DNA from: a virus
Taxonomy: Duplodnaviria > Caudoviricetes
Direction: 5' to 3' (one strand)
Length of the DNA: 64,000 nucleotides
Virus record (IMG/VR): IMGVR_UViG_3300029288_000080
Location: 64,001 to 128,000 of that record
Shown here: positions 2,797-23,385 of the stretch, one piece after another
How positions within the stretch are numbered: position 1 is the stretch's first letter
Layout of the letters: the number at the start of each line of letters is the position of its first letter
The notes under the pieces: model-generated
The model's database searches: none
Seen by the model: only the letters and a program-made list of their open reading frames with translations
What the model was told of the DNA's origin: nothing
Program-made: the position numbers and the translations under genes

Positions 2797-4308
2797 ATGC
2801 GTAAAGTTCCAGTTGGTAAGAATGTCGCTCGCCGGCCTGTAGCGCCCCAGTCCACCGTGGCTGGCCGCCTCGCAGCTCTCCGGGCCCGTAGCCGTCGGGT
2901 CGCCGAGGGTTTCGAGAAGTTCACCGACGAGCCCGAGGTTGACCCCCGGGACGTGGAGTTCCTCGACGAGGAGCTTCCCGAGGGCGATATGGGTGATCTC
3001 GGTGACCTTGGCGATCTTGGTGACCTGGGCGACCTCGGGGATTTCGAGCCCTTGGATTCTGAGGAAGGCGGCGACGAGGGTGGCTGCGGTTGCCCGGTGG
3101 GCCAGCACTCCGAGTGCGTAGACGACGAGGCCGGTGAGGCTGACGAGAAGGATGACGACAAGGAGGAAAAGGACGACGACAAGGAAGACAAGAAGGAGAA
3201 AAAGGAAAAGGACGACGAGGACAAGGATGACGACAAGGAGGACGACGTGAAGGAAGACAAGAAGGAGAAGGACGCGTTGGTAGAGGAGCGGCTGGCCCGT
3301 TTCAAGGCGATCCAGAAGACCCGTCAGGCCGAGGCCTTCAAGGCTGCCCTGCCGGCCAAGAAGCCCGTTGCTGCCCCGGTCAAGACTGCGGAACCCGTTG
3401 TCCCCGTGGCTGCCCCCGCTCCGATCAAGACGGCCGAACCCGTTGTGGAGCCCGCAGCCGTGGTGGCACCTGCTGCCCCGGAGGCCGAGGAGTCCAAGAT
3501 TTCGTGGAGCCCCCTGGTCACCGAGTCCATCCTGGCGGACCTCAAGGATCCCGAGGTTGACCTGACCCTCAAGTCGGCTTCGTCCAACCCGTACTATGTG
3601 CTCTGGATCAACGAGAAGCCCGTGGGTGAGCTTCATGAGGCCGACCTGGACCTCGACGATGCCGGCAAGGACACGTTCCGGTCGGCCCAGTACGTCAGTG
3701 GCGTCCGGGGCGTGATCCAGCAGTTCGGTGCCGTGGAGGCTCTCCGGGACCTCAAGCTCCGGTACTACGCTGCCAGCACCCAGGAGAACGACGCGATCAA
3801 GCGGGCCAAGACCGAGATCGCCCAGGATGCCGATGCTGCGTTCCGCAAGCGTGTCGCCACCATGGTGAACGATATGTTCTCGACCATGAACCTGGCGTTC
3901 CAGGCGTCGCAGAAAAATTTCATTTTGCAAAACGCCCTCAAGGACGCGGTCGTCGAGAATTTCCGGTCCGCTGGGGTGCCCGAGGGTGTCGCGATCGACC
4001 TGATCGAGGACGCCTTCACGAAGGCGGGGCCCGAGTATTTCAAGGCGATGCTCAACAAGGCCCAGGAGTGGCTGGGCTACGAGCCCGAGGCACTTCGGCA
4101 GATCGAGGCCGAGGTTACCGCCATGCAGTACCGGCATCCCCGTGACCAGTTCGGTAGCCAGATCAACGACGAGATCCCTGCCGTGACGGTTCCCCGGGCC
4201 GCCAACGTGGCCCGGGTGGCCCAGACGGTTGTCGAGGATGACCTCGACACCATGATGGCGGCGGCCCGTCGAGTGGGTCGCGCCACCGTGAATCGTCCCC
4301 GCCAGTAA
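2797..4308 (+). CDS. putative prohead scaffold/core protein
   Basis: AGGAGG RBS; Arg-rich leader, (GDL)n repeat, D/E/K low-complexity tract, helical C-terminus; lies just upstream of the prohead protease. Confidence 0.55.
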   Translation: MRKVPVGKNVARRPVAPQSTVAGRLAALRARSRRVAEGFEKFTDEPEVDPRDVEFLDEELPEGDMGDLGDLGDLGDLGDLGDFEPLDSEEGGDEGGCGCPVGQHSECVDDEAGEADEKDDDKEEKDDDKEDKKEKKEKDDEDKDDDKEDDVKEDKKEKDALVEERLARFKAIQKTRQAEAFKAALPAKKPVAAPVKTAEPVVPVAAPAPIKTAEPVVEPAAVVAPAAPEAEESKISWSPLVTESILADLKDPEVDLTLKSASSNPYYVLWINEKPVGELHEADLDLDDAGKDTFRSAQYVSGVRGVIQQFGAVEALRDLKLRYYAASTQENDAIKRAKTEIAQDADAAFRKRVATMVNDMFSTMNLAFQASQKNFILQNALKDAVVENFRSAGVPEGVAIDLIEDAFTKAGPEYFKAMLNKAQEWLGYEPEALRQIEAEVTAMQYRHPRDQFGSQINDEIPAVTVPRAANVARVAQTVVEDDLDTMMAAARRVGRATVNRPRQ

Positions 4309-4315
4309 GTTCTTT

Positions 4316-4348
4316 GGGGCCGGCAGGTCAAATCTTGCGCCCCCTTTT
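4316..4348 (+). terminator. hairpin + T tract with apical AGGTCAAATCT
   Basis: GGGGCCGGCAGGT-CAA-ATCTTGCGCCCC then TTTT; same core as the hairpin at 6529-6560. Confidence 0.55.
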
Positions 4349-4383
4349 CAGTGCTGCGGAATGTTGTGAAAAAAGGTAAATCT

Positions 4384-4668
4384 ATGAACCGTGTCATTCG
4401 CCACCACGGCCACATTTACAAGAAAAGCACTACTCAGGTTCTAGCCGATGGTCAGCCGCGTGATTTACTGAGCATGGCAGGGGAACACATTTTGCTCGCT
4501 GTGGGCAGTTTAGAGAGGGTCATCAACGGTCAAGAAGACCCCCAGTTTTTCGTGGAAAGTGACTCGTCGGGCAAGACGCTGTTCAGCATGGCAGAGAGAC
4601 TAAAACAAATGCTCCGACTTATTGACAGGATTCACGACAGTATGGACAGCAAAGACTACTCAGATTAA
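4384..4668 (+). CDS. hypothetical protein with N-terminal VIRxxGxxYKK motif
   Basis: AAAGG RBS, ATG 4384. Confidence 0.6.
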   Translation: MNRVIRHHGHIYKKSTTQVLADGQPRDLLSMAGEHILLAVGSLERVINGQEDPQFFVESDSSGKTLFSMAERLKQMLRLIDRIHDSMDSKDYSD

Positions 4669-4709
4669 ACCATACTGAGTTTAGACCTCTTTCAGCATCA
4701 GGAACAGCC

Positions 4710-5486
4710 ATGTCAGCACCGTACAGAATCGTCCAGCAAGGCCCCGGGATCCACGTCGGCGACGTCATGTCGGCCACCCTGGTTGACGGCCGTCCCCTCA
4801 CGATCGAGGGGTACAGGCTTGAGCAGTACCAGCGGTCCGGCAAGACCATTGTGGCCGGTGAGGGACTTAATGCCTGTGCCTGCGGGGCCCTGGAGATTGA
4901 CTGGCTTCCTTTTGCCGCCGAGCAGTACCACTGCAGCCCCGATATCAAGGACTACGTCCTGGTAGAAGTGCCCACGGTAGTTGCCACTTTCCCTAACCGA
5001 AATGGCGATGCTTTCCCCTACGAGGAACTGACCGCGTGGCGCACCATGGCGGGACGCCCTGCGTACAAGACATTCATTGGAAAGCCGGTCCACCAGGACC
5101 ACGACAACCAGGACGACACCAAGGCCAAGGGGGTCATTTTTGACGCGACACTTCGGAAGCATCGTGGTCAGCCCCATGTCGTGATTTTGAAGGGCTTCGA
5201 CCGGTCCAAAGACCAGCGGCTTGCCGAAATGGTCCAGAAAAAAAACCGTGTTGGCCATTCCATGGGGACCCTGGTTGAGGAAACTGAATGTTCCATCCCG
5301 TCGTGTCGCTATCGCGGCGACGGGATCAAAACCTGCCAGTGCATCCGTCAGGGTGCCGGCAAGGGTGAAATCGTCAACGGACACCTTGTTTATGAATTGC
5401 TCCGTCGGTTCACCTTCATAGAGGACTCAAGCGTAGAGGACCAGGCTAATGTTTCAGCCGTGAGCGACCGCATCTGGAATCCATAG
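4710..5486 (+). CDS. prohead (capsid maturation) protease, HK97/herpes-like fold with Cys-rich insert
   Basis: PNRNGDAF, YKTFIGKPVHQDH (His), HSMG (Ser), CSIPSC..CQCI, FIEDSSV..A; position in the head module. Confidence 0.8.
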   Translation: MSAPYRIVQQGPGIHVGDVMSATLVDGRPLTIEGYRLEQYQRSGKTIVAGEGLNACACGALEIDWLPFAAEQYHCSPDIKDYVLVEVPTVVATFPNRNGDAFPYEELTAWRTMAGRPAYKTFIGKPVHQDHDNQDDTKAKGVIFDATLRKHRGQPHVVILKGFDRSKDQRLAEMVQKKNRVGHSMGTLVEETECSIPSCRYRGDGIKTCQCIRQGAGKGEIVNGHLVYELLRRFTFIEDSSVEDQANVSAVSDRIWNP

Positions 5487-5494
5487 AGGGCAAC

Positions 5495-6514
5495 ATGACC
5501 ATTTTCTATATCGACACCGTTGAGGCTCTGGACCGCTGGTTCGGCAAGATCAAGGGATACACCCGCGTGGAAGCCAACAACACCGGTTACTACCAAGAGG
5601 ACATGGAGCCGTCGTTCATCAATGGCGAAGAACTTGTCCAGGCGGTTCTGGACCAGATGCACCCCTATGTCATCCGGGCTTATTCTGAGCCGGAACTCAT
5701 GACTGTCGACGTGGATATGCGGACCCTGCTCTACGACTATATGGTGGGGACTGGTGCCCGCGACGGCGACTACACCGAGCAGGATCTTGAGGCCGAGATG
5801 GAAGACAACGCCCTCGGGATCCTCACGGGCGTAAAGCGCGAAATGGAAATCAGGGTAGACCCATACCAGTACGTTCATGAAGATTTTAATGCTGACCAAG
5901 GCGGCGAAGAAGCGCCTGCCCAGCGACATTCTCACGTAACCCATGGCTCCCAGGAGCCGCGAAAGGAATCTGTCATGACCCAGAGGAACCGTCCCGCACG
6001 CCGCCGTGCCAATGCTGATGTTGCTCGCGCGCAGGCCCGCACCGCCATGAAGCTCCGGATGGAGAACCAGCGGACAGCAGCCGTGAACCGTCTCCGCCGT
6101 CGTCTCGCTGCTGTCCGGGCCGCCAGGGCCGAGCGGGTTGCCGCTGCCCAGCCCGAGGCCCAGGAGACCCGTCGTCCCAGCCGTATCCTCAGGTCTGCTG
6201 CCGAGCGTTCCGTGGCCCGTCGGGACCACGAGGTCACGACCAAGAGCGTGGCCCGCGATGAGGTTCGTCGTCGCATCGCCGCGATCCGCCAGAAGGCCGC
6301 GGCGGCCCGGTTGGCCGCTGGCCAGCAAGATACTCAGCCCGAGGTCAAGCCGGCCGATCGTTTTGCTGCCCTTCGTGAGCGCCTGGCCCAGCGGCGTCGC
6401 ATTGCTGCGATCCGGACCGCCCTGGCCGAGCGTCGTGCTTCGGTAGAACATGACGCTGAAGTGGCCCCTCCGGTCATCCGGGTCAAGGGCGTCAGGTACG
6501 AGAGGATCGACTGA
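5495..6514 (+). CDS. bipartite protein: acidic N-half plus Arg/Ala-rich C-half (likely internal start at 5975)
   Basis: Sharp composition switch; AAGGA RBS before in-frame ATG 5975; RRxAAxR helical repeats. Confidence 0.7.
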   Translation: MTIFYIDTVEALDRWFGKIKGYTRVEANNTGYYQEDMEPSFINGEELVQAVLDQMHPYVIRAYSEPELMTVDVDMRTLLYDYMVGTGARDGDYTEQDLEAEMEDNALGILTGVKREMEIRVDPYQYVHEDFNADQGGEEAPAQRHSHVTHGSQEPRKESVMTQRNRPARRRANADVARAQARTAMKLRMENQRTAAVNRLRRRLAAVRAARAERVAAAQPEAQETRRPSRILRSAAERSVARRDHEVTTKSVARDEVRRRIAAIRQKAAAARLAAGQQDTQPEVKPADRFAALRERLAQRRRIAAIRTALAERRASVEHDAEVAPPVIRVKGVRYERID

Positions 6515-6528
6515 CCAATAGTTTCGTT

Positions 6529-6587: not shown

Positions 6588-6857
6588 ATGAAAAATCCTC
6601 GTGTTAGGACCGCGGCAGAACAACGATTCGACCGTGACGCTATTTTCCAGTGGGTCGTGTCGGTCATGACGGCCGCGACCGACGAGTTGGAAAACATTTC
6701 TGTCGCGATCCAGGATATTGACACGAGCGAAAATCCTGCCGACGGCACCGAAATGCGGGCCGTCCTGCAGGAGCGAATCGGTCAGATCGAAACCACGGTG
6801 GACTGGTGCATCGCGAAGATTACGGCGCTGCGTCCGGCCAAGCCCCAGGCCCGCTAA
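6588..6857 (+). CDS. hypothetical (putative internal head) protein
   Basis: Leader MKNPRVRTA followed by an acidic helical body. Confidence 0.6.
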   Translation: MKNPRVRTAAEQRFDRDAIFQWVVSVMTAATDELENISVAIQDIDTSENPADGTEMRAVLQERIGQIETTVDWCIAKITALRPAKPQAR

Positions 6858-6871
6858 CCAAAGGAATCAAG

Positions 6872-7771
6872 ATGAACATCCAGGACAAGTCAGTCATCAA
6901 GGCATTTGCGAATCGTCAGGCCCGCAAGGTTGAGGGCACCAACTTGGTGTCGGCCAACGGCACCCTGCAGTACCGTGGGGTGGTTGTTGCCCGATGGAAT
7001 CGTGGTCGCGTGGAAACAGCACGGAACCGCGTGGAGCCCAGGGTGTTCAGCGTGATCCAGGGGTCACTCCGCAGCGCTACTGTCAAGACTGCCGACGATG
7101 CCGGTGTCGTGGCTCCTCCTGCTGCGGCACCCATGGGTCCTGCTGATGGAATGCCGGGGGCTGGCGCCGCCCCTGTGGCCCCCCGGGGTTCGGTGTCGCC
7201 TGGCCTCAAGGCCGCGATGGGCACGGCCCTGTCGGAAGTATTCGACGAGTTTGGTCCCGAGATCTACAACGGGATCGTCAAGGCCACGACCGCGGCGCTC
7301 AAGACCGCGTTCACGTCAGGGGTCCAGGAAATCCAGACGACCGTCCAGACGGAGTTTGGCGAGAAGGGCGTCGAGCAGGCCCAGCGGTATTTCCGTCGGT
7401 GGCTCCAGGAAATCACCTCGGACGTGTCGCAATACGGGGTCGCCGACATTATCCTGGCGGCCGAGCACACGGCCGCGACCCTCGCGGCCGACTTCCCCGA
7501 GGAGCAAGCCCCGGACGCCGGGGTTGCCGACCTGGCTGCCCAGGAACCCCAGGGTCAGGAGCCCGCCGAGGACTTGATGCCAGTCGAGGAGCTGCCTGAC
7601 CTGGAGGCTGTGGAGCCTGCCGCTGAACCTGCCGCGACCGAAACCCCCGCGGTCCCGGCTGCCCCGCCGGCTGGTGGTGCCCCTGGTCAGCCCGTTGACC
7701 TCCTGGCGCAACCTGTTGCTGCCCTTACGCCTCGTCAAATCGTTCTAAAGCCCCGCGTTACCCGGCGCTAA
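6872..7771 (+). CDS. hypothetical (putative internal head) protein
   Basis: AAGGA RBS; basic N-domain ending VKTA, then an acidic Pro/Ala-rich region. Confidence 0.75.
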   Translation: MNIQDKSVIKAFANRQARKVEGTNLVSANGTLQYRGVVVARWNRGRVETARNRVEPRVFSVIQGSLRSATVKTADDAGVVAPPAAAPMGPADGMPGAGAAPVAPRGSVSPGLKAAMGTALSEVFDEFGPEIYNGIVKATTAALKTAFTSGVQEIQTTVQTEFGEKGVEQAQRYFRRWLQEITSDVSQYGVADIILAAEHTAATLAADFPEEQAPDAGVADLAAQEPQGQEPAEDLMPVEELPDLEAVEPAAEPAATETPAVPAAPPAGGAPGQPVDLLAQPVAALTPRQIVLKPRVTRR

Positions 7772-7787: not shown

Positions 7788-8624
7788 ATGGCAAACCAAA
7801 ATCGTCGCAATGCTTTCCGTCGTCTCGCCGATGCACCCCCCAGGTTCACCGAGCAGGATGAGTGCAGCCAGTTGGTTCATGACATCGAGGAAGCTGAAGC
7901 CCTTGGAATGGGCCAGGCGGCCAAGCAACTCCGGGATGAACTGGCCAGGATGTGCCCGGACAAGAAGGTGGCGACGAAGGTTGCCAGTATAGACGCACTG
8001 GCTTCTCTTACCCAGAATCTGCTAAGATTCTTGGACACGGATCCAGTTTTAGAGCAAGACTCAGATATTACGAAATATATGCAGCGGGCGTACAAAATGG
8101 GCCACTATGATGGTCAGCAAGTGGGCTATGATGAAGGGTACGCTGCGGCCAAGACATCTGTTTCTTATGCTGCCACCCGCAAGGCCGCAGTCGACCTGAC
8201 CGAACAGGAACTCGCTGTGCTCAATCGCGCGTTCACGGTGCTGCAGACCAAGGGGATCAGTCTGGACGAAGCGGTCCAGCAGTTCGAAGAAAGCAAGAAG
8301 GAAAAGAAGGCGTCGGTTCGCCGTCGTGCCGTTTCGACCAAGTTGACCGATTCCATCGACTGCGAGGACATCTTGGGTGGAACCATTACCCAGGATGGTG
8401 GTTTCTGCGCTGACCTGAACAAGAAGCCTGGCAAGGCTCAGTACATGGAAAAGGCCGCTGCACTTCGTCGCCGTCGTCTGTCCACCGGGATCGCCAAGAA
8501 GGAATCCGACCCGATCGAGTGCGATGACATCCTGGGGGGCGACGTCACGGAAGACAAGGGATTCTGCCAGGCTCTGAAGTCCAAGCCCAAGGTCAAGAAG
8601 TTTCAGATTGACCGAGCAGAGTAG
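7788..8624 (+). CDS. modular protein with two Cys-pair peptide repeats
   Basis: AAGGA RBS; segments separated by RRLA/KVA/RKA/RRRA; two DxIxCxDILGG..GFC units. Confidence 0.8.
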   Translation: MANQNRRNAFRRLADAPPRFTEQDECSQLVHDIEEAEALGMGQAAKQLRDELARMCPDKKVATKVASIDALASLTQNLLRFLDTDPVLEQDSDITKYMQRAYKMGHYDGQQVGYDEGYAAAKTSVSYAATRKAAVDLTEQELAVLNRAFTVLQTKGISLDEAVQQFEESKKEKKASVRRRAVSTKLTDSIDCEDILGGTITQDGGFCADLNKKPGKAQYMEKAAALRRRRLSTGIAKKESDPIECDDILGGDVTEDKGFCQALKSKPKVKKFQIDRAE

Positions 8625-9787: not shown

Positions 9788-10297
9788 ATGATCCGTAGAA
9801 ATCGCCGTGTTGCATCACCAGAGTTCACCAGTTACGAGGAGGCGTGGGCATTTGCTGGCCCCAAGGTCAAGCAGATTGCCGACGACATCGCCGAGCAACT
9901 CCAGATGGTCCAGGAAGCCTTGGCGGCCGAAGGGATCGCTGTCGAGGTTACACCCCCATTTGAAGACCATAGTGACGACTATGGGTTTCTGCTCGGGATA
10001 GCAGTCACGGAACCAGATTCTGCCACCGGAGATCTGAACGACGACCTGACTGTTGACGTGCAAGTTAGCCTACTGGACAGCACCGACGCGTCAGAGCCAA
10101 CCGATCCAGACTGGGGCGTCAATATCAGTGTGAACGTTTCGACCGCAGCTGGCCGAATGTTGGGCGGGTATGCCCCGTATAATTATTCCGATCGAGTCTG
10201 GACCAAGAGCCCTGAGGAGTTGACCAGCAGGATGGATCAGTTTGACGCCAGCGCCGTGGCCGATGCGATCACTGATTTCTACGCTAAAAACGCTTAA
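9788..10297 (+). CDS. acidic protein with basic leader (putative internal head protein)
   Basis: AAGGA RBS; MIRRNRRVA then a highly acidic body. Confidence 0.75.
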   Translation: MIRRNRRVASPEFTSYEEAWAFAGPKVKQIADDIAEQLQMVQEALAAEGIAVEVTPPFEDHSDDYGFLLGIAVTEPDSATGDLNDDLTVDVQVSLLDSTDASEPTDPDWGVNISVNVSTAAGRMLGGYAPYNYSDRVWTKSPEELTSRMDQFDASAVADAITDFYAKNA

Positions 10298-10476: not shown

Positions 10477-11304
10477 ATGGCTATTGCTCCTGGTGCTTCT
10501 CAGCGCGGGAAGCTGGATCGTACGCGCAGTCGTTTCACTCGCGTGACCGAATTTCCTCTGGTCACGGGGGTTCCGTTCACTGAGGAAGGTCAGCTCGCCA
10601 TGGCGGTGAACACCGGGACTGGTGTTCATGCAAGCCCGTCGATGGCCGTGGCGGCCAACACTGAGGTTCCGCTCGGCGTGATCCTCAACGGCACCATCAT
10701 GGCGTCGACTTTCACGCATTTCGAGACCGGGACCGTCCCGGCCGCCCTGACCCACCAGCTCAAGTTCAACAACCTGGCGGTGAGTGACCGCTGGACCCCC
10801 CTGGTCGAGGCGTATTGCTACGTGGTGGCCAGCGGGCTGGAAATCCCCGTGACCGCAGCTGCCGCTGCCGCGGGTTCCTGTATGATCAATCAGGCCACCG
10901 GGCTCGTGACCTTCAACGCCCTGCAGACCGGCGGCATCCTTTCCATGGTTGGGGTGGCATTTGCGATTCGCTATCGCTGGAACATGACCGTGATCCAGTC
11001 GTTGTCGTTCTGCAAGTCCAGCCCGATTGGTCGTAGTTCCGAGGGGCTCTACGAGAAGATCATGATCGGGCGCGGCCATGGTTGCCGCTGCTTCACGACC
11101 CACTACGACGCCGACGCCATCTGGACCCTCGGGATGCAGACCGGCGCGACCAACTCGCCGTGCCTCGGGGTTAATGGGCTCTGGTCCACGATCACGAATA
11201 CCACGGGTGGTCCGCTGGCTGGTCCTGGCACGGCTTTCGGGCGCGTCATTTCGCTCCCGAGCGCCAATGACCCGTATGTTGGGTTTGAGTACAACACCCC
11301 GTAG
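10477..11304 (+). CDS. putative head decoration/cement protein, paralogue 1
   Basis: GGAGG RBS; beta-rich; close paralogue of 11475-12281; upstream of the MCP. Confidence 0.6.
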   Translation: MAIAPGASQRGKLDRTRSRFTRVTEFPLVTGVPFTEEGQLAMAVNTGTGVHASPSMAVAANTEVPLGVILNGTIMASTFTHFETGTVPAALTHQLKFNNLAVSDRWTPLVEAYCYVVASGLEIPVTAAAAAAGSCMINQATGLVTFNALQTGGILSMVGVAFAIRYRWNMTVIQSLSFCKSSPIGRSSEGLYEKIMIGRGHGCRCFTTHYDADAIWTLGMQTGATNSPCLGVNGLWSTITNTTGGPLAGPGTAFGRVISLPSANDPYVGFEYNTP

Positions 11305-11356
11305 CCGAGATGCTGATTTTGCGACTACATAGCGCGGCCCCGATTAAATCGTTAGG

Positions 11357-11374
11357 CACGTTATTCTATAGTAG
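11357..11374 (+). promoter_or_regulatory. putative phage late promoter
   Basis: CACGTTATTCTATAGTAG. Confidence 0.75.
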
Positions 11375-11474
11375 CAAATCACCGCATCAACTGATCAGCA
11401 GCATCAACGAAAGTGTCGAGACCAATCTCGACCGAATAATCGGCTCCCTTGAGCCCTAACTTTTGGAGGCCATG

Positions 11475-12281
11475 ATGGCACTTGCACCTGGAGCTTCTCA
11501 GCGCGCGAAGCTGGATCGTACGCGCAGTTACTTCGAGCGGGAGACCGAATACCCGCTCGTCACCGGCGTGAATTTCACCGAGGAAGGTGAAATCGCCATG
11601 GCGGTCAATACCGGGACCGTCGTCCATGCCTCGCCGTCGCTCGGCGCCGCTGTCACGGAGGTTCCGCTCGGCGTGATCCTCAACGGCACGATCGACGCCG
11701 TGACGTTTGCCCACTGGGAGACCGGGACTGTTCCCGCGGGCTTGACCTACACGACCAAGTTCAACAACATCTCGGCTGACCCGTACAACGCGGGTCCCCC
11801 GCAGCTCGCCGACGCCTTCGTCTACAACATCGTGACGGGCGCCGAGATCCCGGTCGTGGCTCCGGCGCCCGGTGCCGGTTCTTGCTCGATTGTCCTGGCC
11901 ACCGGGGTCATCACGTTCAACGCCGATCAGTTGAACGTGCGGTTTGGTATTCGTTACCGTTGGGACATGACGGTCGCGCAGTCCCTGGCGCTTTGCCGCA
12001 TGAGCCCTTACGGGCGTTCGAGCGAGGCTCTCTACGGCAAGATCAACATCGGCCGTGGTCACGGTTGTCGCGTGTTCACCACGCAGTACAACGCCAACTC
12101 TGTATGGACGCTCGGGCTGCAGACTTACCCCACGGGGCCGTTTGACGCGTCGCCGTGCCTCGGGGTCAACGGTCTCTGGTCCACCTGCGCGGACAACAAC
12201 AACGGCACCCCGTTTGGTCGTTGCATCAGCCTTCCGGGCGCCAACGACCCCTACGTCGGGTTCGAGTACAACACCCCGTAA
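11475..12281 (+). CDS. putative head decoration/cement protein, paralogue 2
   Basis: GGAGG RBS; shares KLDRTRS..EVPLGVILNGTI..GRGHGCR..ANDPYVGFEYNTP with paralogue 1; directly before the MCP. Confidence 0.65.
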   Translation: MALAPGASQRAKLDRTRSYFERETEYPLVTGVNFTEEGEIAMAVNTGTVVHASPSLGAAVTEVPLGVILNGTIDAVTFAHWETGTVPAGLTYTTKFNNISADPYNAGPPQLADAFVYNIVTGAEIPVVAPAPGAGSCSIVLATGVITFNADQLNVRFGIRYRWDMTVAQSLALCRMSPYGRSSEALYGKINIGRGHGCRVFTTQYNANSVWTLGLQTYPTGPFDASPCLGVNGLWSTCADNNNGTPFGRCISLPGANDPYVGFEYNTP

Positions 12282-12308: not shown

Positions 12309-13424
12309 ATGTCGATCTACAGTTCCAAGCTTGTTAACCGCCGGGGTGAAGATGTCGCCGAGCAGCCCCGGTACGCAACCCGGTCCAACGGGACCATCGA
12401 GAAGACGGGGTCCGCCCTGACGGACGCCCAGGGCAACTACAACGCCCAGGACCGCAAGGACCTGATCAACGTGATCAAGACCCTGACGGCCCAGATCGAT
12501 TCTGGCGACGTGGTTCGCCAGGCGTCGGTGGACGACCAGGCTGTCGCGAAGCTGATCACCGCCGCGATGTCCCAGAACGACGTCAAGGCCCCGGGGGGCG
12601 CGTTCGAGCGGGTCGGCCAGGTCGTGGCCGATATGGTTTCTGAAACGATGGGCCGCCAGATGTTCACCGACAAGATCCTGGCCCGCAAGGATGCCAAGGA
12701 GGGTCTCGGTGTGGTTCCCCCGGTCGAGATCGACCAGATGGACGTGACCGCGTGGCACCTCGTGTCCAACGGCAACGTGGTCGAGTCGCTCGTTAACCCC
12801 CGGTACGTCTCGGCCCAGGGCTTCTGGATCACGGGCCTCATCTACGTGGAAGAGCAGGACCTGTTCTTCGCGGGTTCCTCGTTCCTGGAGCGCAAGCACC
12901 AGCGGGGTCTCGAGGCCATCGGGGTCCGTGAGGACAACGTCACGAAGTTCCTGTTGGACCAGGCCGCCCCGATCGACAACGACCTCCTGACGTTCGGTAC
13001 CTTTACCCCGACTGCTTTCGGCGCTCTCCGTGATCAGGTTTGGGGCTGGGGCCTCAACCCCACGACCGCCCTGGTGGCCGTGGACCTGCAGCGCGACATC
13101 CTGGCGGACTCCGACTGGCACGATGTGTACAGCCCGGTCGAGCAGCACATCCTGTTCCAGGAGGGCAAGTTCGGCAGCGTGTTCGGTGTGGAAATCTTCA
13201 CCGACGGTTACCGGCTGGACACCCTCCGGGTGCTTGAGCGCGGCGAGGTCTACATGCTCGGCGCCCCCGCGACGCTTGGTGTGAAGATTCCCCTCATTGC
13301 CCTCAATTCGGAGCCCGTCAACCAGCACCTCAATGGAATTCCAAAGAAAGGGTGGTGGTTGTCCCAGTACGAATCCATCGTACTTGCAAACAGCAAGGCT
13401 GTGGCCAAGGGCACCAAGCTGTAA
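12309..13424 (+). CDS. major capsid protein (HK97 fold)
   Basis: 371 aa, AAGGAG RBS, strongly biased codons; GKFGSVFGVEIFTD..LERGEVY..KGWW..ESIVLANSKAVAKG resembles an MCP C-terminus; followed by a hairpin. Confidence 0.8.
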   Translation: MSIYSSKLVNRRGEDVAEQPRYATRSNGTIEKTGSALTDAQGNYNAQDRKDLINVIKTLTAQIDSGDVVRQASVDDQAVAKLITAAMSQNDVKAPGGAFERVGQVVADMVSETMGRQMFTDKILARKDAKEGLGVVPPVEIDQMDVTAWHLVSNGNVVESLVNPRYVSAQGFWITGLIYVEEQDLFFAGSSFLERKHQRGLEAIGVREDNVTKFLLDQAAPIDNDLLTFGTFTPTAFGALRDQVWGWGLNPTTALVAVDLQRDILADSDWHDVYSPVEQHILFQEGKFGSVFGVEIFTDGYRLDTLRVLERGEVYMLGAPATLGVKIPLIALNSEPVNQHLNGIPKKGWWLSQYESIVLANSKAVAKGTKL

Positions 13425-14854: not shown

Positions 14855-17800
14855 ATGTCGGTTAATCCTGACAACAGAATCCCCGAGCCTCCATTCACCA
14901 CCGCAGAAGCCGGGATCATCGGTGACACCATCGGGATTATCTGGGATCAAGTGGATTTCTCGGTGGACCAGTTTCTGGCCGGGCTCCAGGTAGAGTTGGA
15001 ACATGGGGCCCGGGATCCCGAGACCGACGTGACCCAGGACGACCCCTACGAAACCGGTAAAATCGCTTGGGCCCACCTGAAAGAAAAGCCTGACTACTAC
15101 GAGGGATTAGCCGCGATGGAAAAAGCCAACGAACCTGCTGCCCAGGCTGCCCCCAAGGACGAAGGCGCTATCCCGATGTCGCCCAACAACATGGTGGCCC
15201 CTATGGATTCGACTACCCAGGCGAAGTCCGCTGAAGTCGAGAAGTCAGCGGTGGTGAAGCGTTGCCGCCCCACTGATTGCCCCGATAAACCTGACGATGA
15301 AAAGCGCTGGTGCCTCTTGACCCACGACGAAAAGAAAGCCTTGAAGTGTGCCCCGACCCGTGAGGAAGCCGTCAAGCAGGAAAAGAACGTCAACTTCTTC
15401 AAGCACCAAGGGACCACCATGGAACCTCGCTACACCATCCTGACCGCCGCGATGATCCTGCGGGAAGCTGCCCAGGGCCGTGACGTTGACGACATGGATC
15501 TCTCGTGGGACTCAGGGGCCATCGGGACCATCACGAAGGAACTGGATTCCGCCGCGATCCGATGGGTCCAGTCGGATGCGTTTCCCAAGGACGACGAAAC
15601 CTTCGAGATGCTGGATCCCGTCACGGATGACCGTGCACTCCCGGCCAAGCCCGACGAGTATTACCCGGTGTTCATCAAGTTCTGCCAGCGGTACGGCTTG
15701 GACGTCGAGGATCTGGAAAAGCGTTGGGGTGGCCGGTCCATTGACCATCGGCTTACCGCCGTGGCCCGCGACTTTGCCCACAAGATCGTGCCACAGTGCA
15801 CCGAACAGTCCAGGGTTTGCCAGGATGTTGGCGGTGCCATGGCGTTCACGTTCGTCTCTCGCATCCCTGGCGTCATCTACATCGCGGCCGAGACGGAAGG
15901 CAAGCAGCAGTTCAACTTCAAGCCTCAGTTAACGAGGCAATACCGCGACGACAAGGCCGCCCCGACCAAGCAGGCTGGGGCCAAGCGTGCTGCCCTGGTT
16001 AAGCGAAATCGTGACCTCCGGGTTGCCGTCCTGGTCAACGTCAAGTCCATGTGGAACCCCAAGTTCGCCGAGGCGTTGCAGCGGAGCCTCACGAACCTGG
16101 GGGACGAGCCCGGCCAGCACCCGCTTGACGAGAATACCCTAGAGGCCCAGATCCCCGACACCGAAGTGGCCCGGGAAGCCCTGAACCTGTACTACACGGT
16201 CTGGGCCGCCACGATGGAAACGCTCTACAACTTCGGCAAGAAGGTCGGGAACGAAAATGTCCTGAACGTCACGACCGCTAGGTTGTCAGCCGCGATCACG
16301 GACCAAGCCTTCGGGGCCAGCAAGTTGATGCCCGAGCCTCCCGCCCAGAATCTCCAGGCGGAGTACAAGCAGTTCATCCAGATGAACAAGTTGACCAAGG
16401 GGTTCGACGTCAACCAGATTGTCCAATGGGCCACCGGGACCGCAGGCAAGACCTACAAGCAATGGGAAAAGGCCCTGACGGACCGGTGGAAGCAGGAGAA
16501 GCCCGCCGATAAGTCCACGGCAACTCCGCCGCCGGTTCCTGGTGGGGCAACCCCTCCTCCGGTTCCCCAGGACGCCCGCAAGCAGAAGCAGGGTGCTGTT
16601 GCGTCAGTGGACACCGATGAAATGGCTTGGGTCAAGGCTGACCTCGATGCCATCCAGCGTGACATCGACACTTTGGGTTTGGAAGGTGCCGCCCGTAAGA
16701 ATCTCGATATCATGACCGCTGCGTTGTCCGAAAATCAGGGTGGCATCAACGAGTACGTGAACAGTTTTTCTCTTGACGGTTTCACGGAAGCGTTTGCCCG
16801 CTGTGGCATGCAAGTTTCCTCCAAGACCAAGGTCAAGACCGCCGCGACCACCCGGGTATATTTTGACGACCTTGGACTTGTTGCGGTCATCAAGGTGACG
16901 CCGGAATCTCAAGCCATCATGGATGAGATGACCCCGCACAGTAAATACGCACTCCTCCTGGGTGACGAGGAACAATTTAATGCGCTCAAAGAAGTAGAAG
17001 CGGTAGTGCGGAAGCAGAAACTGTCGACTCCGCCCCGTGGAGCCAAGGTGCAGCGCAAGGCCATGGACTTGGACGAAACCCGCGCTCTTAAAAATACCAT
17101 GAAAACCCGCATGGCCGACGAGCCCGCAGGTCTGGGCGGCCCGCTGGACCGTGGTGACTTTCACTACATGACTATGGACGACCTTCGGAAAGTCCCGCTC
17201 GACCCAATGGCCGGGGACATTGGTGGCGTCAGTACCGTGACGAATCAGTTGCCCCAAGGTGTCGACGATCCTGACGTTGACCTGGAGATTGTTGACCTGC
17301 TCCTGGGCCTTGGGGCCCAGCATGACCCTGACGATCAGTATACCCTCATGACCCCGGTGGGTCCCCTGTACTGCCGGGTGGGTCACGATGCCCTGTACTG
17401 CCGGTTCCGCGACATCGAGGAAGCCCTTGGGGTTGTGGATTGTGACGCCCATTCGGGCGAGTGGAACCAGTATTACTTTGACGACGAGTCCCCCGAGAAG
17501 TTCGTGGGGCGACTGCGCAAGTTGCTCAACAAGGTCATGGAGCCCCCTGTTCCCATGGTCCAGGTCACGAGTCCCGGGATGGCCGACATGTTGGGGTTCG
17601 ACCAGCCTGGTCCTCTGGACCCTGATCTTGGTGGCCTACCGGATGGCCTGGAAGACTTTTCACAGGTCAGGGGCGCTGGATTCCTCGGGGTCAAGCCCAA
17701 GACCAAGAAGCTCCAGAAGGCCGAGGCCATGGCCGACAAGGCCCTGGTACAGATGCTCCAGGAGTTTGGGGCCCAGCAGAACCTTGACGCTATGTATGAC

Positions 17801-18880
17801 TGGGAACTTGACACCCCGGTGGGCAAACTGGGCTGCACGGTGCGTAATGGTGAGTTGTTCTGCCGGTTCGACAACCCCGAGGCCGCGGCCCTCGTGACCT
17901 CGTGTAATCCGTATTCCGGAAAATGGAATTTCCATTACACCGGCAAGGACCCCATGGTTGCGGTCGTGGAAGCTCGACAGAAAATTTCACGCCTTATGGA
18001 TCAGGTGGGTCAGCAGCGCGAGACCAGCAAGATCCGCAAGTTTGTTGACAAGTGGAAGGGAGCCAAGGTTAAGGTTGCTATTCCGCTGGATCCCGACCAT
18101 GCCTGGGAGCAAAAGATCCAGCAGTCGAGCAAGTCTGGCATGAAGTTTTTCAGCAATGACGACGCCACCTACGTGGTTACGCCCAGGGGCACCTCGTGGA
18201 TCGTTGCGGTCCCGGGTGAACAACTCGAGGAACCCATCCAGATTTCGGCTGTTCCAGAGGACTCGGTCGCGTTGTCCAGCAACCCTGTGCTGGATCGGTT
18301 GCTCACGCGATTTCCCCGGTGGTGCAGGCGCCAAGGGGTTGGCGGTCGCGCAGCGTCGGTCAAGCCCACGGGCATCCTGCACTCCGCTTCCTTGGGGCTC
18401 CAGATTGGGTTCCGTGGGGGTGCAGCCGTGCTGTCCCGGGATGACGGTGCCACCTGGGAGCAGGCCAGCAAGGTCGATTGGGACCAGGTTCAACTTGATT
18501 GCACAGCCCACCGGTGTGAGCAATACCAAGAATGGCCCCAGGAGGTTCGCGCGACGTTCCAGAAACTAAAAACGCGCGTAGGGGCTAGGTTAGAATGGTA
18601 CGAGCCAGGCGAGGGGTGGTATAGCAACGACCGAGGTGCGGAACCAGACGACGTAGATCTACACGACGACGCCCTTATGCCAGCGGCCGAGGCGTTGGCC
18701 GAGTATACACTGCTGGGTGGACTACCTGATGACCCTGCGGGTCAGAGCCGTAAAAAGCACGCTCACGACCGCTACCAACGCCAACTTGACCTTCTCGCAG
18801 AAAACTTTGGTGTGGACCTGCACCGTCGTCATGACCTCCACCAGCGTATCCGCGGGCTGGCCGATCGGTTGACCGCGTGA
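14855..18880 (+). CDS. large multidomain (polyvalent-like) protein with N-terminal DUF5661-like domain
   Basis: ELEHG..TDVT.DDP..T.KIA.AHLKE.PDYY motif; internal duplicated TPVG.L.C.V..L.CRF..SG.WN domain; many K/R-x-A linkers. Confidence 0.8.
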   Translation: MSVNPDNRIPEPPFTTAEAGIIGDTIGIIWDQVDFSVDQFLAGLQVELEHGARDPETDVTQDDPYETGKIAWAHLKEKPDYYEGLAAMEKANEPAAQAAPKDEGAIPMSPNNMVAPMDSTTQAKSAEVEKSAVVKRCRPTDCPDKPDDEKRWCLLTHDEKKALKCAPTREEAVKQEKNVNFFKHQGTTMEPRYTILTAAMILREAAQGRDVDDMDLSWDSGAIGTITKELDSAAIRWVQSDAFPKDDETFEMLDPVTDDRALPAKPDEYYPVFIKFCQRYGLDVEDLEKRWGGRSIDHRLTAVARDFAHKIVPQCTEQSRVCQDVGGAMAFTFVSRIPGVIYIAAETEGKQQFNFKPQLTRQYRDDKAAPTKQAGAKRAALVKRNRDLRVAVLVNVKSMWNPKFAEALQRSLTNLGDEPGQHPLDENTLEAQIPDTEVAREALNLYYTVWAATMETLYNFGKKVGNENVLNVTTARLSAAITDQAFGASKLMPEPPAQNLQAEYKQFIQMNKLTKGFDVNQIVQWATGTAGKTYKQWEKALTDRWKQEKPADKSTATPPPVPGGATPPPVPQDARKQKQGAVASVDTDEMAWVKADLDAIQRDIDTLGLEGAARKNLDIMTAALSENQGGINEYVNSFSLDGFTEAFARCGMQVSSKTKVKTAATTRVYFDDLGLVAVIKVTPESQAIMDEMTPHSKYALLLGDEEQFNALKEVEAVVRKQKLSTPPRGAKVQRKAMDLDETRALKNTMKTRMADEPAGLGGPLDRGDFHYMTMDDLRKVPLDPMAGDIGGVSTVTNQLPQGVDDPDVDLEIVDLLLGLGAQHDPDDQYTLMTPVGPLYCRVGHDALYCRFRDIEEALGVVDCDAHSGEWNQYYFDDESPEKFVGRLRKLLNKVMEPPVPMVQVTSPGMADMLGFDQPGPLDPDLGGLPDGLEDFSQVRGAGFLGVKPKTKKLQKAEAMADKALVQMLQEFGAQQNLDAMYDWELDTPVGKLGCTVRNGELFCRFDNPEAAALVTSCNPYSGKWNFHYTGKDPMVAVVEARQKISRLMDQVGQQRETSKIRKFVDKWKGAKVKVAIPLDPDHAWEQKIQQSSKSGMKFFSNDDATYVVTPRGTSWIVAVPGEQLEEPIQISAVPEDSVALSSNPVLDRLLTRFPRWCRRQGVGGRAASVKPTGILHSASLGLQIGFRGGAAVLSRDDGATWEQASKVDWDQVQLDCTAHRCEQYQEWPQEVRATFQKLKTRVGARLEWYEPGEGWYSNDRGAEPDDVDLHDDALMPAAEALAEYTLLGGLPDDPAGQSRKKHAHDRYQRQLDLLAENFGVDLHRRHDLHQRIRGLADRLTA

Positions 18881-19059
18881 CCCTCGCGCAAGCCATTGCC
18901 CTGGCCTGGGTCCAACGGGCCACTATTGACGAGCGTGACGCCCACGCGGTGGCCACCAGCCTGGTCCAGGAAATCAAGTCGATCAAGCGGGAAATCCGCG
19001 ACGAAATCCGTCGGGCCAGGAAACTGGGGGCGGATCGCTACCAAAAGGAAGTGTTGTGA
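18877..19059 (+). CDS. small hypothetical protein
   Basis: GTGA overlaps at both ends. Confidence 0.55.
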   Translation: MTLAQAIALAWVQRATIDERDAHAVATSLVQEIKSIKREIRDEIRRARKLGADRYQKEVL

Positions 19060-19910
19060 TGCAATCCAAGTCTATGCTTCGAGGAACCCGCAGGGTTGCC
19101 GCGGCCCCCGAGATGCCCATTGAGTTTTTTAACGCGTACGTGGAAGCGGCGCTCTGGAGCACCACCGACAACTCCGACGAGCAAGGTGGTGAACCCCTGG
19201 ACCAGAACTACTCGGTTGACGACATTGCCGACGAGTCGTTGGCCGCGATGGAGCAGGATTGCCAGGCGTTCTGGCAGGCCAACCACGAGGACCTTGGGCA
19301 GTATCGTGACCCGCAGTACAGCGCCGCTGAACTTGGTGGCCATGATTTCTGGCTGACTCGGAATGGCCACGGCGCTGGTTTCTGGGATGGCGATTTGCCC
19401 GATGACGTAGGCAAGCGCCTGACCGAGGCCGCCAAGGCATTTGGAGAGGACGACCTGTATGTCGGGGACGACGGCAAGATCTACAACTCGGCTACGCCGC
19501 ACCAGTACAACGAAGCCCTTGACCAGCAGCCCGAGTGGGTCAGGGGTGCTGGAGTGCGCGGGGATAAGGCAGTAAACCGCTCTAAGAATAAGCGTATCGT
19601 TCAGACTATGGACGACATTAAAACAGCGTTGGTCCAGATTGGCTACACTCATCGGCAACAGGGTATCGCGGACCAGTACCAGCAAGAAGTGTCCGACGTT
19701 GACTCTGAGGTCAAACGGTTAACCACGGTGTTCAAGCAGCATGGACTGGTGGGGTTCCATAATCGGGAGGATGACCCTGCGGTCACGACTTGGCATTTCG
19801 ACAGTGCTGGTGCCCAGCGTGGATTTGGTGCCAAGGTCATGGTTTATAGCGATCAACCCAACCTGGTCCTGGTCAACGTCATGGATTCAAATTCGGTGAG
19901 GTCCTGGTAG
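19059..19910 (+). CDS. two-domain hypothetical protein with LRGTRRVA leader
   Basis: AAGGA RBS; phage-type motif YVEAALWS..GHDFWLTRNGHGAGFWD..LYVGDDG. Confidence 0.8.
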   Translation: MQSKSMLRGTRRVAAAPEMPIEFFNAYVEAALWSTTDNSDEQGGEPLDQNYSVDDIADESLAAMEQDCQAFWQANHEDLGQYRDPQYSAAELGGHDFWLTRNGHGAGFWDGDLPDDVGKRLTEAAKAFGEDDLYVGDDGKIYNSATPHQYNEALDQQPEWVRGAGVRGDKAVNRSKNKRIVQTMDDIKTALVQIGYTHRQQGIADQYQQEVSDVDSEVKRLTTVFKQHGLVGFHNREDDPAVTTWHFDSAGAQRGFGAKVMVYSDQPNLVLVNVMDSNSVRSW

Positions 19911-19913
19911 AAA

Positions 19914-20336: not shown

Positions 20337-20339
20337 AAG

Positions 20340-20666
20340 ATGTCCAGGTTCAGGATTGCCCAGCCCGACCCCGACGCGATGCCGCTCCTGCAGGTGGGCG
20401 ACTCAGTCGGGACCCCAGAGGGTCAAGGGATTGTCGTCAATATCGCGCTGCAGATCGCCGACTACCAAGGGGACGTCCAGATCGATCCCCCGGCTATCCT
20501 GATCCAGTTGGAATCAGGGCAAACCCAGCAGTTTTGCCTGTGCGAACTGGACTTTGGGTCGGAAGAAATCAACGAAACGGTCGGGAAGGAATTTTCCCGC
20601 CTTTGGCCCCCGATCGACATGGATGTCCCGGATGCCGCTGTTGTCCTGGCGGCCCGGAAGGAATAG
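20340..20666 (+). CDS. hypothetical acidic protein (SH3/KOW-like beta pattern)
   Basis: GAGG RBS; LQVGDSVGTPEGQGIV. Confidence 0.65.
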   Translation: MSRFRIAQPDPDAMPLLQVGDSVGTPEGQGIVVNIALQIADYQGDVQIDPPAILIQLESGQTQQFCLCELDFGSEEINETVGKEFSRLWPPIDMDVPDAAVVLAARKE

Positions 20667-20668
20667 CG

Positions 20669-21805
20669 ATGCTCCCTGCAGTTGGAACCAAAATCAAGAC
20701 GCTCGAGGGTGTTGACCTCGGTGGTGGTGCTGTGGTCCAGCGGGTGGGTCCTGGTAAGACCACGCTCCTGTTGACCGACCAAAACCGTATCGTGACCTAC
20801 CGGGTGCCCGACGATATCGCGTGGGCCCCAGACGACCAACTTGACGCCACTGGGCTGGACGACACCGTCGTGGACGAGTCAGCTCAGGATTTCGGCCCTG
20901 CTACCAAACGGATCACCCGGCTCCCCAAGCAATGGGGGCCCGCAGACCCGAACCATTTTTCCCCGATGTCCGACGTGACCTGGCGACCCGAACAGTGGGA
21001 CCAGCGGTATCTCCGGCGCTGGTACAGCAAGGAAATCGAAATGCCCAAACAATCGGTTGACTATCTTCGTGGAACCCGCCGGACCGCTATCAAGGACACC
21101 ACCGCGGCCGATTCTCACGCAACCATGGACCTTGTTCAATGGGACCCTGAAGGTGCTGACCAGAAGCCTGCTGAACTGGAAGCTTTGGCCCTACAGTTCC
21201 GCCAGGACCTCGATGCCCTCACGATCGAGTGGCATCCCCAGTTCGGCCGGGGCAACAATGTCAGCCCCTCAGAGTTCATGCTGGTCTGGGGCCCTGACCA
21301 AGAGTTGGCTCCGGGTCAACAAGATGAACTCTGGCGCTTTATGGTCTCGGCCAAGATGTACGATGTCCGCGAGTATCAGGCGTGGAAACGACTGCGTTCC
21401 AGTGACCAGTGGCTCCGGAGTGAGTTGCCCAGGGCAGCCAGGACCGCCGACACCCTGGTGCAGCACCCTGGCCCCATGGAGATCGACGTCGAGGACTGGT
21501 TCGACGACATTGATCCTTGGGTAGACTGGCTGGCCCGCTTTGACTCGTTTGACCGTGCAGTCCAAGTGGCCCACAAGGTCGCGGCAGAAGAGGGAGCAGT
21601 GCTGGCCCGGGATGTCTTCCAGTACGCCCAGAAGGTCGTGCTGGACGCCAGGGACCGCTACCAGGAGGGCACTCTGGACCTGGACCCTGGCCAACTCGTC
21701 AGGCTCAACCAGTACCTTGCGGAGATGCACCTGGACCCCGTGGAAGGCCCTGACGAGACCCGTGGCCAGGACCTTGCTGACATCAGGCAGGTGTGGGGCA
21801 GGTGA
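20669..21805 (+). CDS. modular hypothetical protein; possible internal start at 21041 (LRGTRRTA leader)
   Basis: ATG 20669 follows the upstream stop; AAGGA RBS before in-frame ATG 21041. Confidence 0.7.
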   Translation: MLPAVGTKIKTLEGVDLGGGAVVQRVGPGKTTLLLTDQNRIVTYRVPDDIAWAPDDQLDATGLDDTVVDESAQDFGPATKRITRLPKQWGPADPNHFSPMSDVTWRPEQWDQRYLRRWYSKEIEMPKQSVDYLRGTRRTAIKDTTAADSHATMDLVQWDPEGADQKPAELEALALQFRQDLDALTIEWHPQFGRGNNVSPSEFMLVWGPDQELAPGQQDELWRFMVSAKMYDVREYQAWKRLRSSDQWLRSELPRAARTADTLVQHPGPMEIDVEDWFDDIDPWVDWLARFDSFDRAVQVAHKVAAEEGAVLARDVFQYAQKVVLDARDRYQEGTLDLDPGQLVRLNQYLAEMHLDPVEGPDETRGQDLADIRQVWGR

Positions 21806-23385
21806 TGTCCCAGATGCCCCAGCGAGGACGGGTCTGGCGGCGCCAGGAGGCCCTAGGACAGGGGCGCCAGCCTCGTCCGGAGTCTGGTCGCCTGGTCGCC
21901 CAGCACCTCGTCCTGGTCATCAGGGTGGCCAACGGCGTCGTCCACTACGCCGACTACACTGCCCATATCAAATCGCCCATCAGGGCTGCTTGGCATATGG
22001 ACCTGGACAGGTTCACGGTGTTGTACCAGTTTGACGCCAAGGCAACGAAGAACAGGACAGCCAGGCTGGCTGCTACCCCGGCGGTCCCGGCGGCTGACCC
22101 CGCCAACGTGGTGGACGCCCAAGGGCTCACGACCGACCCCAGGACCATCCCTTACTTGCCCATCGCCGACAAAGTCGTCAAGCAGTACAAAATCATCTCG
22201 ACCACTGGGTACCCTGTCAGGGCGGTAGTTGAAGGCGATGGCGTTGATCTGTTCTACCAGTTGGACCGGATGTCCAGCAAGAGTGCCACGCTTCAATTGG
22301 ATTTCAAGCAAGGGGCCCAGCAGCCCCAGGAAGTTATCTTCACGCTTCAGTGCGCCAAGCCCGAGCCTTTTGTGGCCCCGACGCCCAAGTGCACAATCCC
22401 ACAGTTGCTCACGGCCTTGGCGTCGTTGCAGCACTGTGCCACTAAGCCCAAATCAGCCAAATACACCAAAGACCAGATCGCCAAGGAGACCGCCAAGGCC
22501 CAGGTGGTCGATCTGCTGGTCGGGTTGCTCAACAGCAATCCTGGCCGTTGGGGTGAACTTCCGCAGAAACCCAAAGATCTGGTCGCGTGGCTATCCGAAA
22601 CCCCCGAGTCCATCAAACAGTTCAAAGATCTGATTGGTTTTCTCAAGACCGTGGGAGCGCAACGCTGGGCCGACATTCTGAAGCGGGTGCAGATCCGCCA
22701 GGCAGTCGGGACTCCAGTATTGCCTGCCATCGAGGCGTCGATCCTGCAGGTCATCCGGCATGAATGGAAGGGCGACGTTTCACTGGCCGGCCAATACGGG
22801 GTTGTACAAAACAATGCCGACGGCACCGTCCTGGTCCAGTTGTTTGGTGCCCCATACCCGACGTTTTTCGCCATGACGCCCCAAGGTAAAATTGCCGAAA
22901 TGAATGTGTCGCTGTGCGAGGGGGACTTCGCGACCAAGAACCCCCAAGTGATGCCCAGGCTCATCACGGCCGAGATTTCGCTGTTTGCGGCTCGCAAGGG
23001 AACCGCGGCCCCGGGCAAGAGCCCAGCGGCCCCCACTGACCTCAAGGCCCTGATGCCCCAGTTTGCCGACATGAAGCCCGAACAACTGCGTGCCCTGCTG
23101 GACAAGGGTGTGGTGGTCCAGCAGGACGCCAACAAGAATATGCTGATCCAGGTCAACCGGGGCAAGGACCCTGCCCCGGTGTTCACCCTGCAGGCCCCGA
23201 CCCGAAACGATACCTTGGCCGACCAGCAGGCTGCCCAGGCGGAATTGCAACTGGAGATCGCCCAGGCGGTTGAACAGGCCGGCACCCCCTACTACTTCAT
23301 GGTGCGGCCGACCCAGCAGGGCGAGCTTCGCGTCACGGTCCTGACCCCCGACAACCCTACCCCGATCCACAGTTTCAAACTTTAG
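21805..23385 (+). CDS. hypothetical protein
   Basis: TGATG coupling; 526 codons. Confidence 0.75.
   Translation: MSQMPQRGRVWRRQEALGQGRQPRPESGRLVAQHLVLVIRVANGVVHYADYTAHIKSPIRAAWHMDLDRFTVLYQFDAKATKNRTARLAATPAVPAADPANVVDAQGLTTDPRTIPYLPIADKVVKQYKIISTTGYPVRAVVEGDGVDLFYQLDRMSSKSATLQLDFKQGAQQPQEVIFTLQCAKPEPFVAPTPKCTIPQLLTALASLQHCATKPKSAKYTKDQIAKETAKAQVVDLLVGLLNSNPGRWGELPQKPKDLVAWLSETPESIKQFKDLIGFLKTVGAQRWADILKRVQIRQAVGTPVLPAIEASILQVIRHEWKGDVSLAGQYGVVQNNADGTVLVQLFGAPYPTFFAMTPQGKIAEMNVSLCEGDFATKNPQVMPRLITAEISLFAARKGTAAPGKSPAAPTDLKALMPQFADMKPEQLRALLDKGVVVQQDANKNMLIQVNRGKDPAPVFTLQAPTRNDTLADQQAAQAELQLEIAQAVEQAGTPYYFMVRPTQQGELRVTVLTPDNPTPIHSFKL

Follow-up and report, generated by a model that had tools for sequence, protein, structure and literature searches.

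Basic leaders and hairpin-like tags ending in R/K-x-A on the head proteins of an uncultured phage: possible signals for capsid loading and release

In phage T4, several otherwise unrelated head proteins (the internal proteins, Alt and gp24) are made with capsid targeting sequences, short N-terminal peptides of 10-20 amino acids (aa) that end at a site for the prohead protease, gp21, and are removed by it. Here we describe a comparable arrangement in a 64,000-nucleotide stretch of DNA (the window), bases 64001-128000 of a single 177,603-bp contig from an uncultured phage (IMG/VR record IMGVR_UViG_3300029288_000080; completeness ~70% by the CheckV estimate). Around a gene for a prohead protease with the predicted fold of gp21, located as in T4 between the genes for the portal and the major capsid protein (MCP), unrelated head proteins carry short basic leaders that end in R/K-x-A and are followed by acidic sequence. 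In relatives, the same tripeptide ends a longer, hairpin-like tag. Our preferred reading, to which we give a probability of about 0.48, is that leaders and tags act as signals for the loading of proteins into the prohead and for their release inside it, and that the protease cuts after the Ala; binding, cleavage, the P1 residue and the packaging or injection of the products are what we infer from the sequences. The likeness to T4 has limits. The T4 site is L/I-x-E and is cut after Glu, whereas the conserved element here is basic-x-Ala. Unlike the T4 peptides, the leaders may have as few as 5 aa or take the form of the hairpin-like unit, and the tags are found internally and at C-termini as well.

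Other systems resemble this one in different respects. In phiKZ (gp175) and SPN3US (gp245), one gp21-like protease serves many head proteins with propeptides of varying length, and there are scaffold-like proteins with multiple sites, as appears to be the case here; the motifs are, however, S/A/G-x-E and A-x-E, and no portable hairpin tag has been described. The herpesvirus assemblins, which have the same protease fold, cut after Ala at R- and M-sites of the form (V/L/I)-x-A↓S (the arrow marks the cut, established or putative). Ala would be the P1 residue here too, and several of the sites have Ser at P1′. The M-site finds a possible counterpart in the R-R-A↓S of the product of the gene at 5495, where 21 aa separate it from the C-terminus, and in K-K-A↓S before the C-terminal hairpins of relatives, the hairpin being the putative anchor. 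The differences are that P3 is hydrophobic in herpesviruses but Arg or Lys in the motif enriched here, and that the herpesvirus site is on the scaffold and the protease, whereas here the motif is on dozens of putative cargo proteins. Finally, the cargo-loading peptides of encapsulins are likewise short and conserved, can be at either terminus, and bring unrelated proteins to the interior of an HK97-fold shell, as the tags may do; their cargo is not released by a protease, and their sequence is unrelated to that of the tags. As a whole, the present system differs from the known ones in its motif, its hairpin anchor and the scale of tagging.

The head module is on the + strand at 2797-25186 (positions are those of the window unless marked as genome). 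The genes for the terminase large subunit (genome 48887) and the portal (genome 53062) are directly upstream of the window; the protease gene is within the module, ahead of the MCP gene (12309). Among cultured phages, the closest relatives belong to the PaBG/Lu11/Yoloswag type of jumbo phages, with MCP identity of 27-29%. For comparison we used ~30 loci obtained from viral and metagenome collections through MCP-based searches (MCP identity 33-57%).

Short N-terminal leaders are common to otherwise unrelated head proteins, all encoded on the + strand. The first is a scaffold-like acidic protein of 503 aa (2797..4308), whose 36-aa basic leader (nt 2797-2904) ends R-R-V-A; its homologue in one relative (L001) has R-R-A↓L-E-D at the leader-end position. 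The leader is 9 aa long and ends V-R-T-A in a small acidic protein (6588..6857), 14 aa and R-R-L-A in a 278-aa head protein (7788..8624), 9 aa and R-R-V-A in a 169-aa acidic protein (9788..10297), 14 aa and R-R-V-A, directly ahead of the domain, in a phrog_1915-domain protein (19059..19910), and 7 aa and F-R-I-A in a 108-aa protein (20340..20666). The start codons at 2797, 7788, 9788, 19059, 20340 and 35072 have AGGA-type ribosome sites. Codons for the motif vary between gene copies; because they differ from gene to gene, the motif is a protein-level feature, and a DNA-level element behind the start codons is ruled out.

All the peptides that a preliminary description of this DNA had quoted are present where it had placed them, although two are not leaders. 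No open reading frame (ORF) starts at 21041, where a leader had been proposed: the site, R-R-T-A↓I-K-D, is at residue 140 (nt 21088) of a 378-aa protein (20669..21805, +), residues 5-237 of which are homologous to one ORF of L001. Similarly, V-K-T-A↓D-D, taken to end a short leader, is at residue 74 of a 299-aa head protein (6872..7771, +), upstream of its conserved domain.

The statistics of the motif need to be read with care: its definitions were all set after the data had been seen, and because they are post hoc the p-values are strong indications only. The preliminary description warned that R-x-A is common, and the caveat was apt. The N-terminal enrichment that it proposed is absent from plain [RK]xA (ratio 0.91 in the first 40 aa) but is seen with a composite, defined by a net charge of at least +3 in the 8 residues before [RK]xA and of -1 or lower in the 8 after. 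The composite is 4x commoner at N-termini than internally (10/6280 vs 14/35082, p=3e-4), and leaders of this kind are in 5/20 head-module genes vs 5/137 others (Fisher p=0.003), with three of the latter five being the terminase, the portal and a 64-aa gene beside the portal. When other residues take the place of Ala, the N-terminal count of 10 is reduced to 0-2; Val and Arg are exceptions, being part of the same R-R-V-A sites. In this genome, Ala is the specific residue at the charge switch.

Comparison of [RK][TSV]A with its five anagrams provides a control that is proof against composition. Head proteins have 35 sites vs an anagram mean of 13.4 (Poisson 6.5e-7), and the rest of the genome has 77 vs 70. 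A basic-upstream, acidic-downstream context accompanies 11/35 motif sites vs 0/62 anagram sites (p=4e-6). Enrichment and its coupling to the charge switch are confined to packaging and head genes. Within the module, the sites are densely spaced in two scaffold-like proteins, with 8 in the 2797 product and 5 in the 5495 product, and there is none in the protease, the MCP or two paralogous structural proteins (10477, 11475). In an unbiased tripeptide scan of the relatives, R-T-A ranked 14th of 4154, a rank that is confounded by orthologous conservation, and the scan was underpowered in the window alone. A gapped dipeptide scan put R.A third, although head proteins are acidic in general. A control set of tail genes was sought, and downstream of the head module PHROGs names almost nothing. 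The sequence evidence supports R/K-x-A as a selected, head-specific junction signal.

In the relatives, the tripeptide is the end of a larger, hairpin-like tag on unrelated proteins, which the preliminary description had missed. Many of their head-module ORFs begin with a peptide of ~14 residues, P-x-x-I-x-[YV]-x-G-x-x-Y-[RVK]-[LR]-A. A profile built from 30 seeds and used to search the called proteins gave 102 matches at or above the threshold of 9 bits, and none in the same proteins after reversal or shuffling. There are 116 non-redundant instances, of which 67 are N-terminal, 41 internal and 8 C-terminal. The Gly and Tyr were fixed by the anchoring of the alignment; Pro is at -10 in 79/116 and Ile or Val at -7 in 101/116. 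Position +3 is Ala in 66/116 and Val in 31/116, and position +4 is mostly Glu, Ala or Asp. The carriers are diverse: with the tag masked, the 14 tagged proteins of one 20-kb head locus (L008) make 14 mutually unrelated families. Searches of the tagged proteins against Pfam gave nothing, and the tag itself has no match in Pfam or in the literature searched. The tag is real and modular, whichever mechanism holds.

The number of copies varies widely. Searches of whole records counted 44 copies in a complete 350-kb relative, where many are clustered well away from the head genes; a 106-kb fragment has 28, the two closest relatives have 3 and 1, the present genome has 6 and the cultured phage PaBG has 0. 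The window and its closest relatives thus have few hairpins, and Arg-rich leaders with the ending R-[VT]-A are found instead. A hairpin-like tag forms the N-terminus (nt 4390-4422) of a small protein of 94 aa (4384..4668, +), and another (nt 6467-6505) is at the C-terminus of a 339-aa protein in scaffold position (5495..6514, +), whose C-terminal half is Arg-rich. When the tag is C-terminal, K-K-A↓S, K-T-A↓P, K-Q-A↓T or, in the 5495 product, R-R-A↓S is found 4-25 residues upstream of it; such a site is present in ~6/8 families, and Ser, Thr or Ala often follows the Ala. From the N-terminal and C-terminal layouts together, R/K-x-A therefore falls between tag and cargo at either end. The internal and C-terminal tags also suggest a role in binding in addition to any cutting.

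Some tagged genes lie outside the head module. Three consecutive minus-strand genes at genome 26454-27925, which is outside the window, begin with the hairpin tag. The tagged 350-aa protein encoded at genome 26489-27541 is paralogous (E 1e-18) to the middle part of an 802-aa protein from genome 55626-58034, which also has a ParE/RelE-like N-terminal domain. The 26489 product has a Y-H-G-T / G-G-x-Y / Q-V-E pattern with weak matches to PARP domains and in this respect looks like an ADP-ribosyltransferase. The 26489/55626 group is thus a candidate for packaged ADP-ribosyltransferases, like Alt of T4; genome 61853-63019 is listed alongside 26454-27925 and 55626-58034 in this connection. In the complete 350-kb relative, at least 8 small genes clustered on both strands (L043, G001 172-184 kb), also outside the head module, all begin with the hairpin tag.

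Four orthologue families are informative about the junctions, and in these the motif is kept ahead of the same domains in relatives with 40-57% MCP identity. The first is that of DUF5661, in which proteins start either M-R-R-T-A↓F-T-P-E-E or, without a leader, M-F-T-P-E-E. The second is a small Cys domain that is preceded by R-T-A, L-R-T-A, K-V-A or V-T-A in five relatives, has a leaderless start, M-T-I-R-D-C, in a sixth (L022), and is internal, after K-S-A, in the window's 1341-aa product of 14855..18880 (+). In the latter, K-S-A↓V-V-K (after residue 132, nt 15250) joins DUF5661 (residues 1-100) to the Cys domain. At least 6 relatives have a separate gene for each of the two parts, generally with a short R/K-[TV]-A leader at the start of the second gene, and the 14855 product is therefore a gene fusion, joined at the motif. 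The preliminary description had placed the motif at a domain junction in this protein, which agrees with the fusion point; its broader term, polyprotein, suits this product and no other. In the third family, the phrog_1915 domain follows an N-terminal R-R-V-A in the window and is internal after R-K-T-A in L036 and V-K-T-A in L022. In the fourth, that of 20340, the leader is F-R-I-A in the window, M-R-R-D-A in L006 and a full hairpin tag in L039, and it is missing from L001, L002 and L005. The four families show that the motif holds its position relative to the domain while the surroundings change, and the leaderless orthologues begin at the residue following the Ala position. Orthologues of two other proteins behave similarly: those of the 6872 product have [IVR]-T-A in the matching region upstream of the domain, and those of the 20669-21805 product have K-T-A, K-E-A, R-E-A or K-S-A near the residue-140 site.

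The protease (4710..5486, +; phrog_18299, E 5e-49) was identified as such in the preliminary description, and structure prediction bears this out. The AlphaFold2 model is of good quality (predicted local distance difference test score, pLDDT, 89; predicted template modelling score 0.86). When it was searched with Foldseek, the top three hits were chains of T4 gp21 (5JBL; probability 1.0), followed by the human cytomegalovirus protease at ~0.5. By this model the product has the gp21/assemblin fold. The putative catalytic His and Ser, H131 and S184, do not vary among 68 homologues of 29-59% identity, and the family has 776 members in the representative library. The relation to the phiKZ and SPN3US proteases is distant: a sequence search gave no match in PDB or Pfam, and phrog_18299 places the protein with PaBG/Lu11-type phages. 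Among the best 150 homologues, about 20 have lengths of 620-1680 aa and align in two or three stretches that lie apart from one another, which suggests inteins or large insertions in prohead protease genes.

We envisage the process as follows. A protein bound for the head would bear an anchor, usually a short Arg-rich peptide in this phage and usually the ~14-residue hairpin-like peptide in relatives. The anchor would keep the protein in the assembling core, perhaps by binding to the protease, to the inner face of the shell or to the 2797 protein, which is extremely acidic. The gp21-fold protease would then cut after the Ala of the R/K-x-A between anchor and cargo and free the cargo. Scaffold-like proteins with many sites would be chopped up by the protease likewise. 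If the anchor is C-terminal, the site would be a few residues upstream, as in the M-site of the herpesvirus scaffold.

Several observations weigh against this scheme. Some leaders have only 5 residues, which seems short for a binding signal, and 27% of the hairpin tags end in Val. The composite is also enriched in the relatives (3x), but Gly, Gln or Thr can replace Ala with an equal result, and the test thus offers no confirmation of Ala specificity in them. A look-alike leader, M-K-R-R-R-A↓I-D-L-D-D, starts the terminase large subunit, a protein that is no prohead substrate. In the MCP, R-Q-A↓S is present after residue 72, as had been noted previously, but the position is not conserved: R-x-A is found in just 3/12 other aligned MCPs (PaBG, L002 and L022). 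The post hoc standing of the p-values belongs here too. Finally, the characterised gp21-type phage proteases (T4, phiKZ, 201phi2-1 and SPN3US, the last with A-x-E) all cut after Glu (PMC5694885, PMC10052503), and Glu or Asp is found 1-5 residues past most of the Ala sites.

The last two facts lead to an alternative that we think unlikely, in which the leaders are capsid-targeting propeptides with a canonical gp21 cut at Glu or Asp slightly downstream, and R/K-x-A is only the end of a recognition or binding element. Acidic residues come after nearly every site, with several reading A-A-E, S-P-E, A-P-E or T-A-E, and 24% of the hairpins continue as L-A-E, which is like the T4 L-x-E. The spacing speaks for the Ala instead. 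The distance from the Ala to the first Glu is variable, and L036 has no Glu before the start of the domain. In the Cys-domain family the first Glu falls after conserved residues, which a cut at that Glu would take away. The starts of leaderless orthologues, too, correspond to the position after the Ala, not to one after Glu. An Ala at the end of a product of this fold is not without precedent, since the assemblin of pseudorabies virus ends at Ala225 (PMC4498786).

It is also possible, although we consider it quite unlikely, that nothing is cut at these sites, and that motif and hairpin are modules that serve permanently for binding or assembly, for example as a beta-strand 'velcro' to other head proteins, the shell or DNA. 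This would account for the hairpins that are internal (41/116), in tandem or at extreme C-termini, where cutting would be pointless. In the MCP, whose structure model is poor (pLDDT 49), the N-terminal 74 residues are the best-predicted part, and R-Q-A is inside a predicted strand of this N-terminal mini-domain. Permanent modules fit less well with the gain and loss of leaders among orthologues whose domain is unchanged, with the location of the motif, always between anchor and cargo at either end, and with the density of sites in scaffold-like proteins against their absence from shell proteins. Moreover, PaBG, a distant relative, processes its MCP and several head proteins; the MCP loses ~20% of its mass, and no cleavage sites are given (PMC7412058).

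Chance and base composition are very improbable as the whole explanation: a GC-rich genome gives many R-x-A, N-termini are often basic, plain [RK]xA lacks N-terminal enrichment, the relatives' basic-then-acidic N-termini are enriched whatever the junction residue, and the terminase carries the pattern, but this account is largely refuted by the anagram-controlled excess confined to head proteins, the charge-switch context, the specificity for Ala at the junction in this genome, the conservation at orthologous junctions and the lack of hairpin matches in shuffled controls.

Returning to loading and release after Ala, the leaders and tags most likely mark proteins for capsid loading and protease clipping, and capsid cargo could then be predicted from sequence. 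A more ambitious proposal, which we regard as tentative and somewhat doubtful, is that large phages of an uncultured clade combine a portable anchor, hairpin or basic, with an R/K-x-Ala release site and a gp21-fold protease with a herpesvirus-like preference for Ala at P1, not Glu. From about 10 to more than 40 unrelated proteins per genome would be marked as cargo, including enzyme-like ones encoded far from the head genes, and the packaged, possibly injected, proteome would be readable from sequence. If true, this would be the first phage protease of the gp21/assemblin superfamily with Ala specificity, and it would link the maturation sites of phages and herpesviruses. Anchor plus R/K-x-A would be a simple sequence code with which to list the capsid cargo of unculturable phages, and the tag would be a small natural means of putting foreign proteins into a large phage head.

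The shell proteins may be processed at other sites. The position of R-Q-A in the MCP (12309..13424, +; phrog_2522) fits the ~20% mass loss of the PaBG MCP. Better conserved as a candidate is Y-N-A at residues 44-46, in which N45 is invariant, though it amounts to no more than a lead. The two paralogues at 10477 and 11475 (together 10477..12281, +; phrog_16710) are virion structural proteins and likely shell components; residues 4-8, near their N-termini, form a conserved P-[GN]-A-S. By analogy with herpesvirus x-N-A↓S, which they resemble, the Y-N-A of the MCP and the P-[GN]-A-S of the paralogues could be the true sites of shell maturation.

The remaining sites are internal or in weaker members. 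Beyond its leader, the 2797 product contains a low-complexity region of very acidic sequence, two K-T-A↓E-P sites and, at its C-terminus, a conserved domain; the 378-aa protein of 20669 has a second site, A-R-T-A↓D, at residue 260. In the 7788 product R-R-A↓V is ahead of a small Cys domain, which is duplicated in the ORF at 8642. A Cys segment of ~45 aa (D-x-I-x-C-x-D-I-L-G-G ... G-F-C) is near-identical in the two products (8300-8430 and 8960-9088), R-R-A↓V precedes both copies, and there is a diverged second copy within the 7788 product. Of the genes outside the cluster that were listed previously, a 249-aa protein (35072..35821, +) starts M-F-R-T-A, and a 333-aa protein (41983..42984, +) has S-R-V-A at residue 16 and K-T-A, K-S-A and K-Q-A inside. 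The peptides are there, although we count both proteins as weak members. The 35072 product also has a GNAT-like R-G-Q-G-L-G motif near its C-terminus.

Three minor observations concern other features. The 14855 product has two copies of a ~70-aa Cys-rich repeat (P-V-G-x-L-x-C ... C-R-F ... S-G-x-W-N) encoded at 17300-18100. The terminase large subunit (genome 48887-52621) is 1244 aa long; its terminase match is restricted to the C-terminal third and the middle has endonuclease- and recombinase-like matches, which suggests an intein or inserted domains. Finally, the phage genome has TnpB-like, IS605-type genes at 992-2335 and 61031-62580 of the window, one of them directly upstream of the head module.

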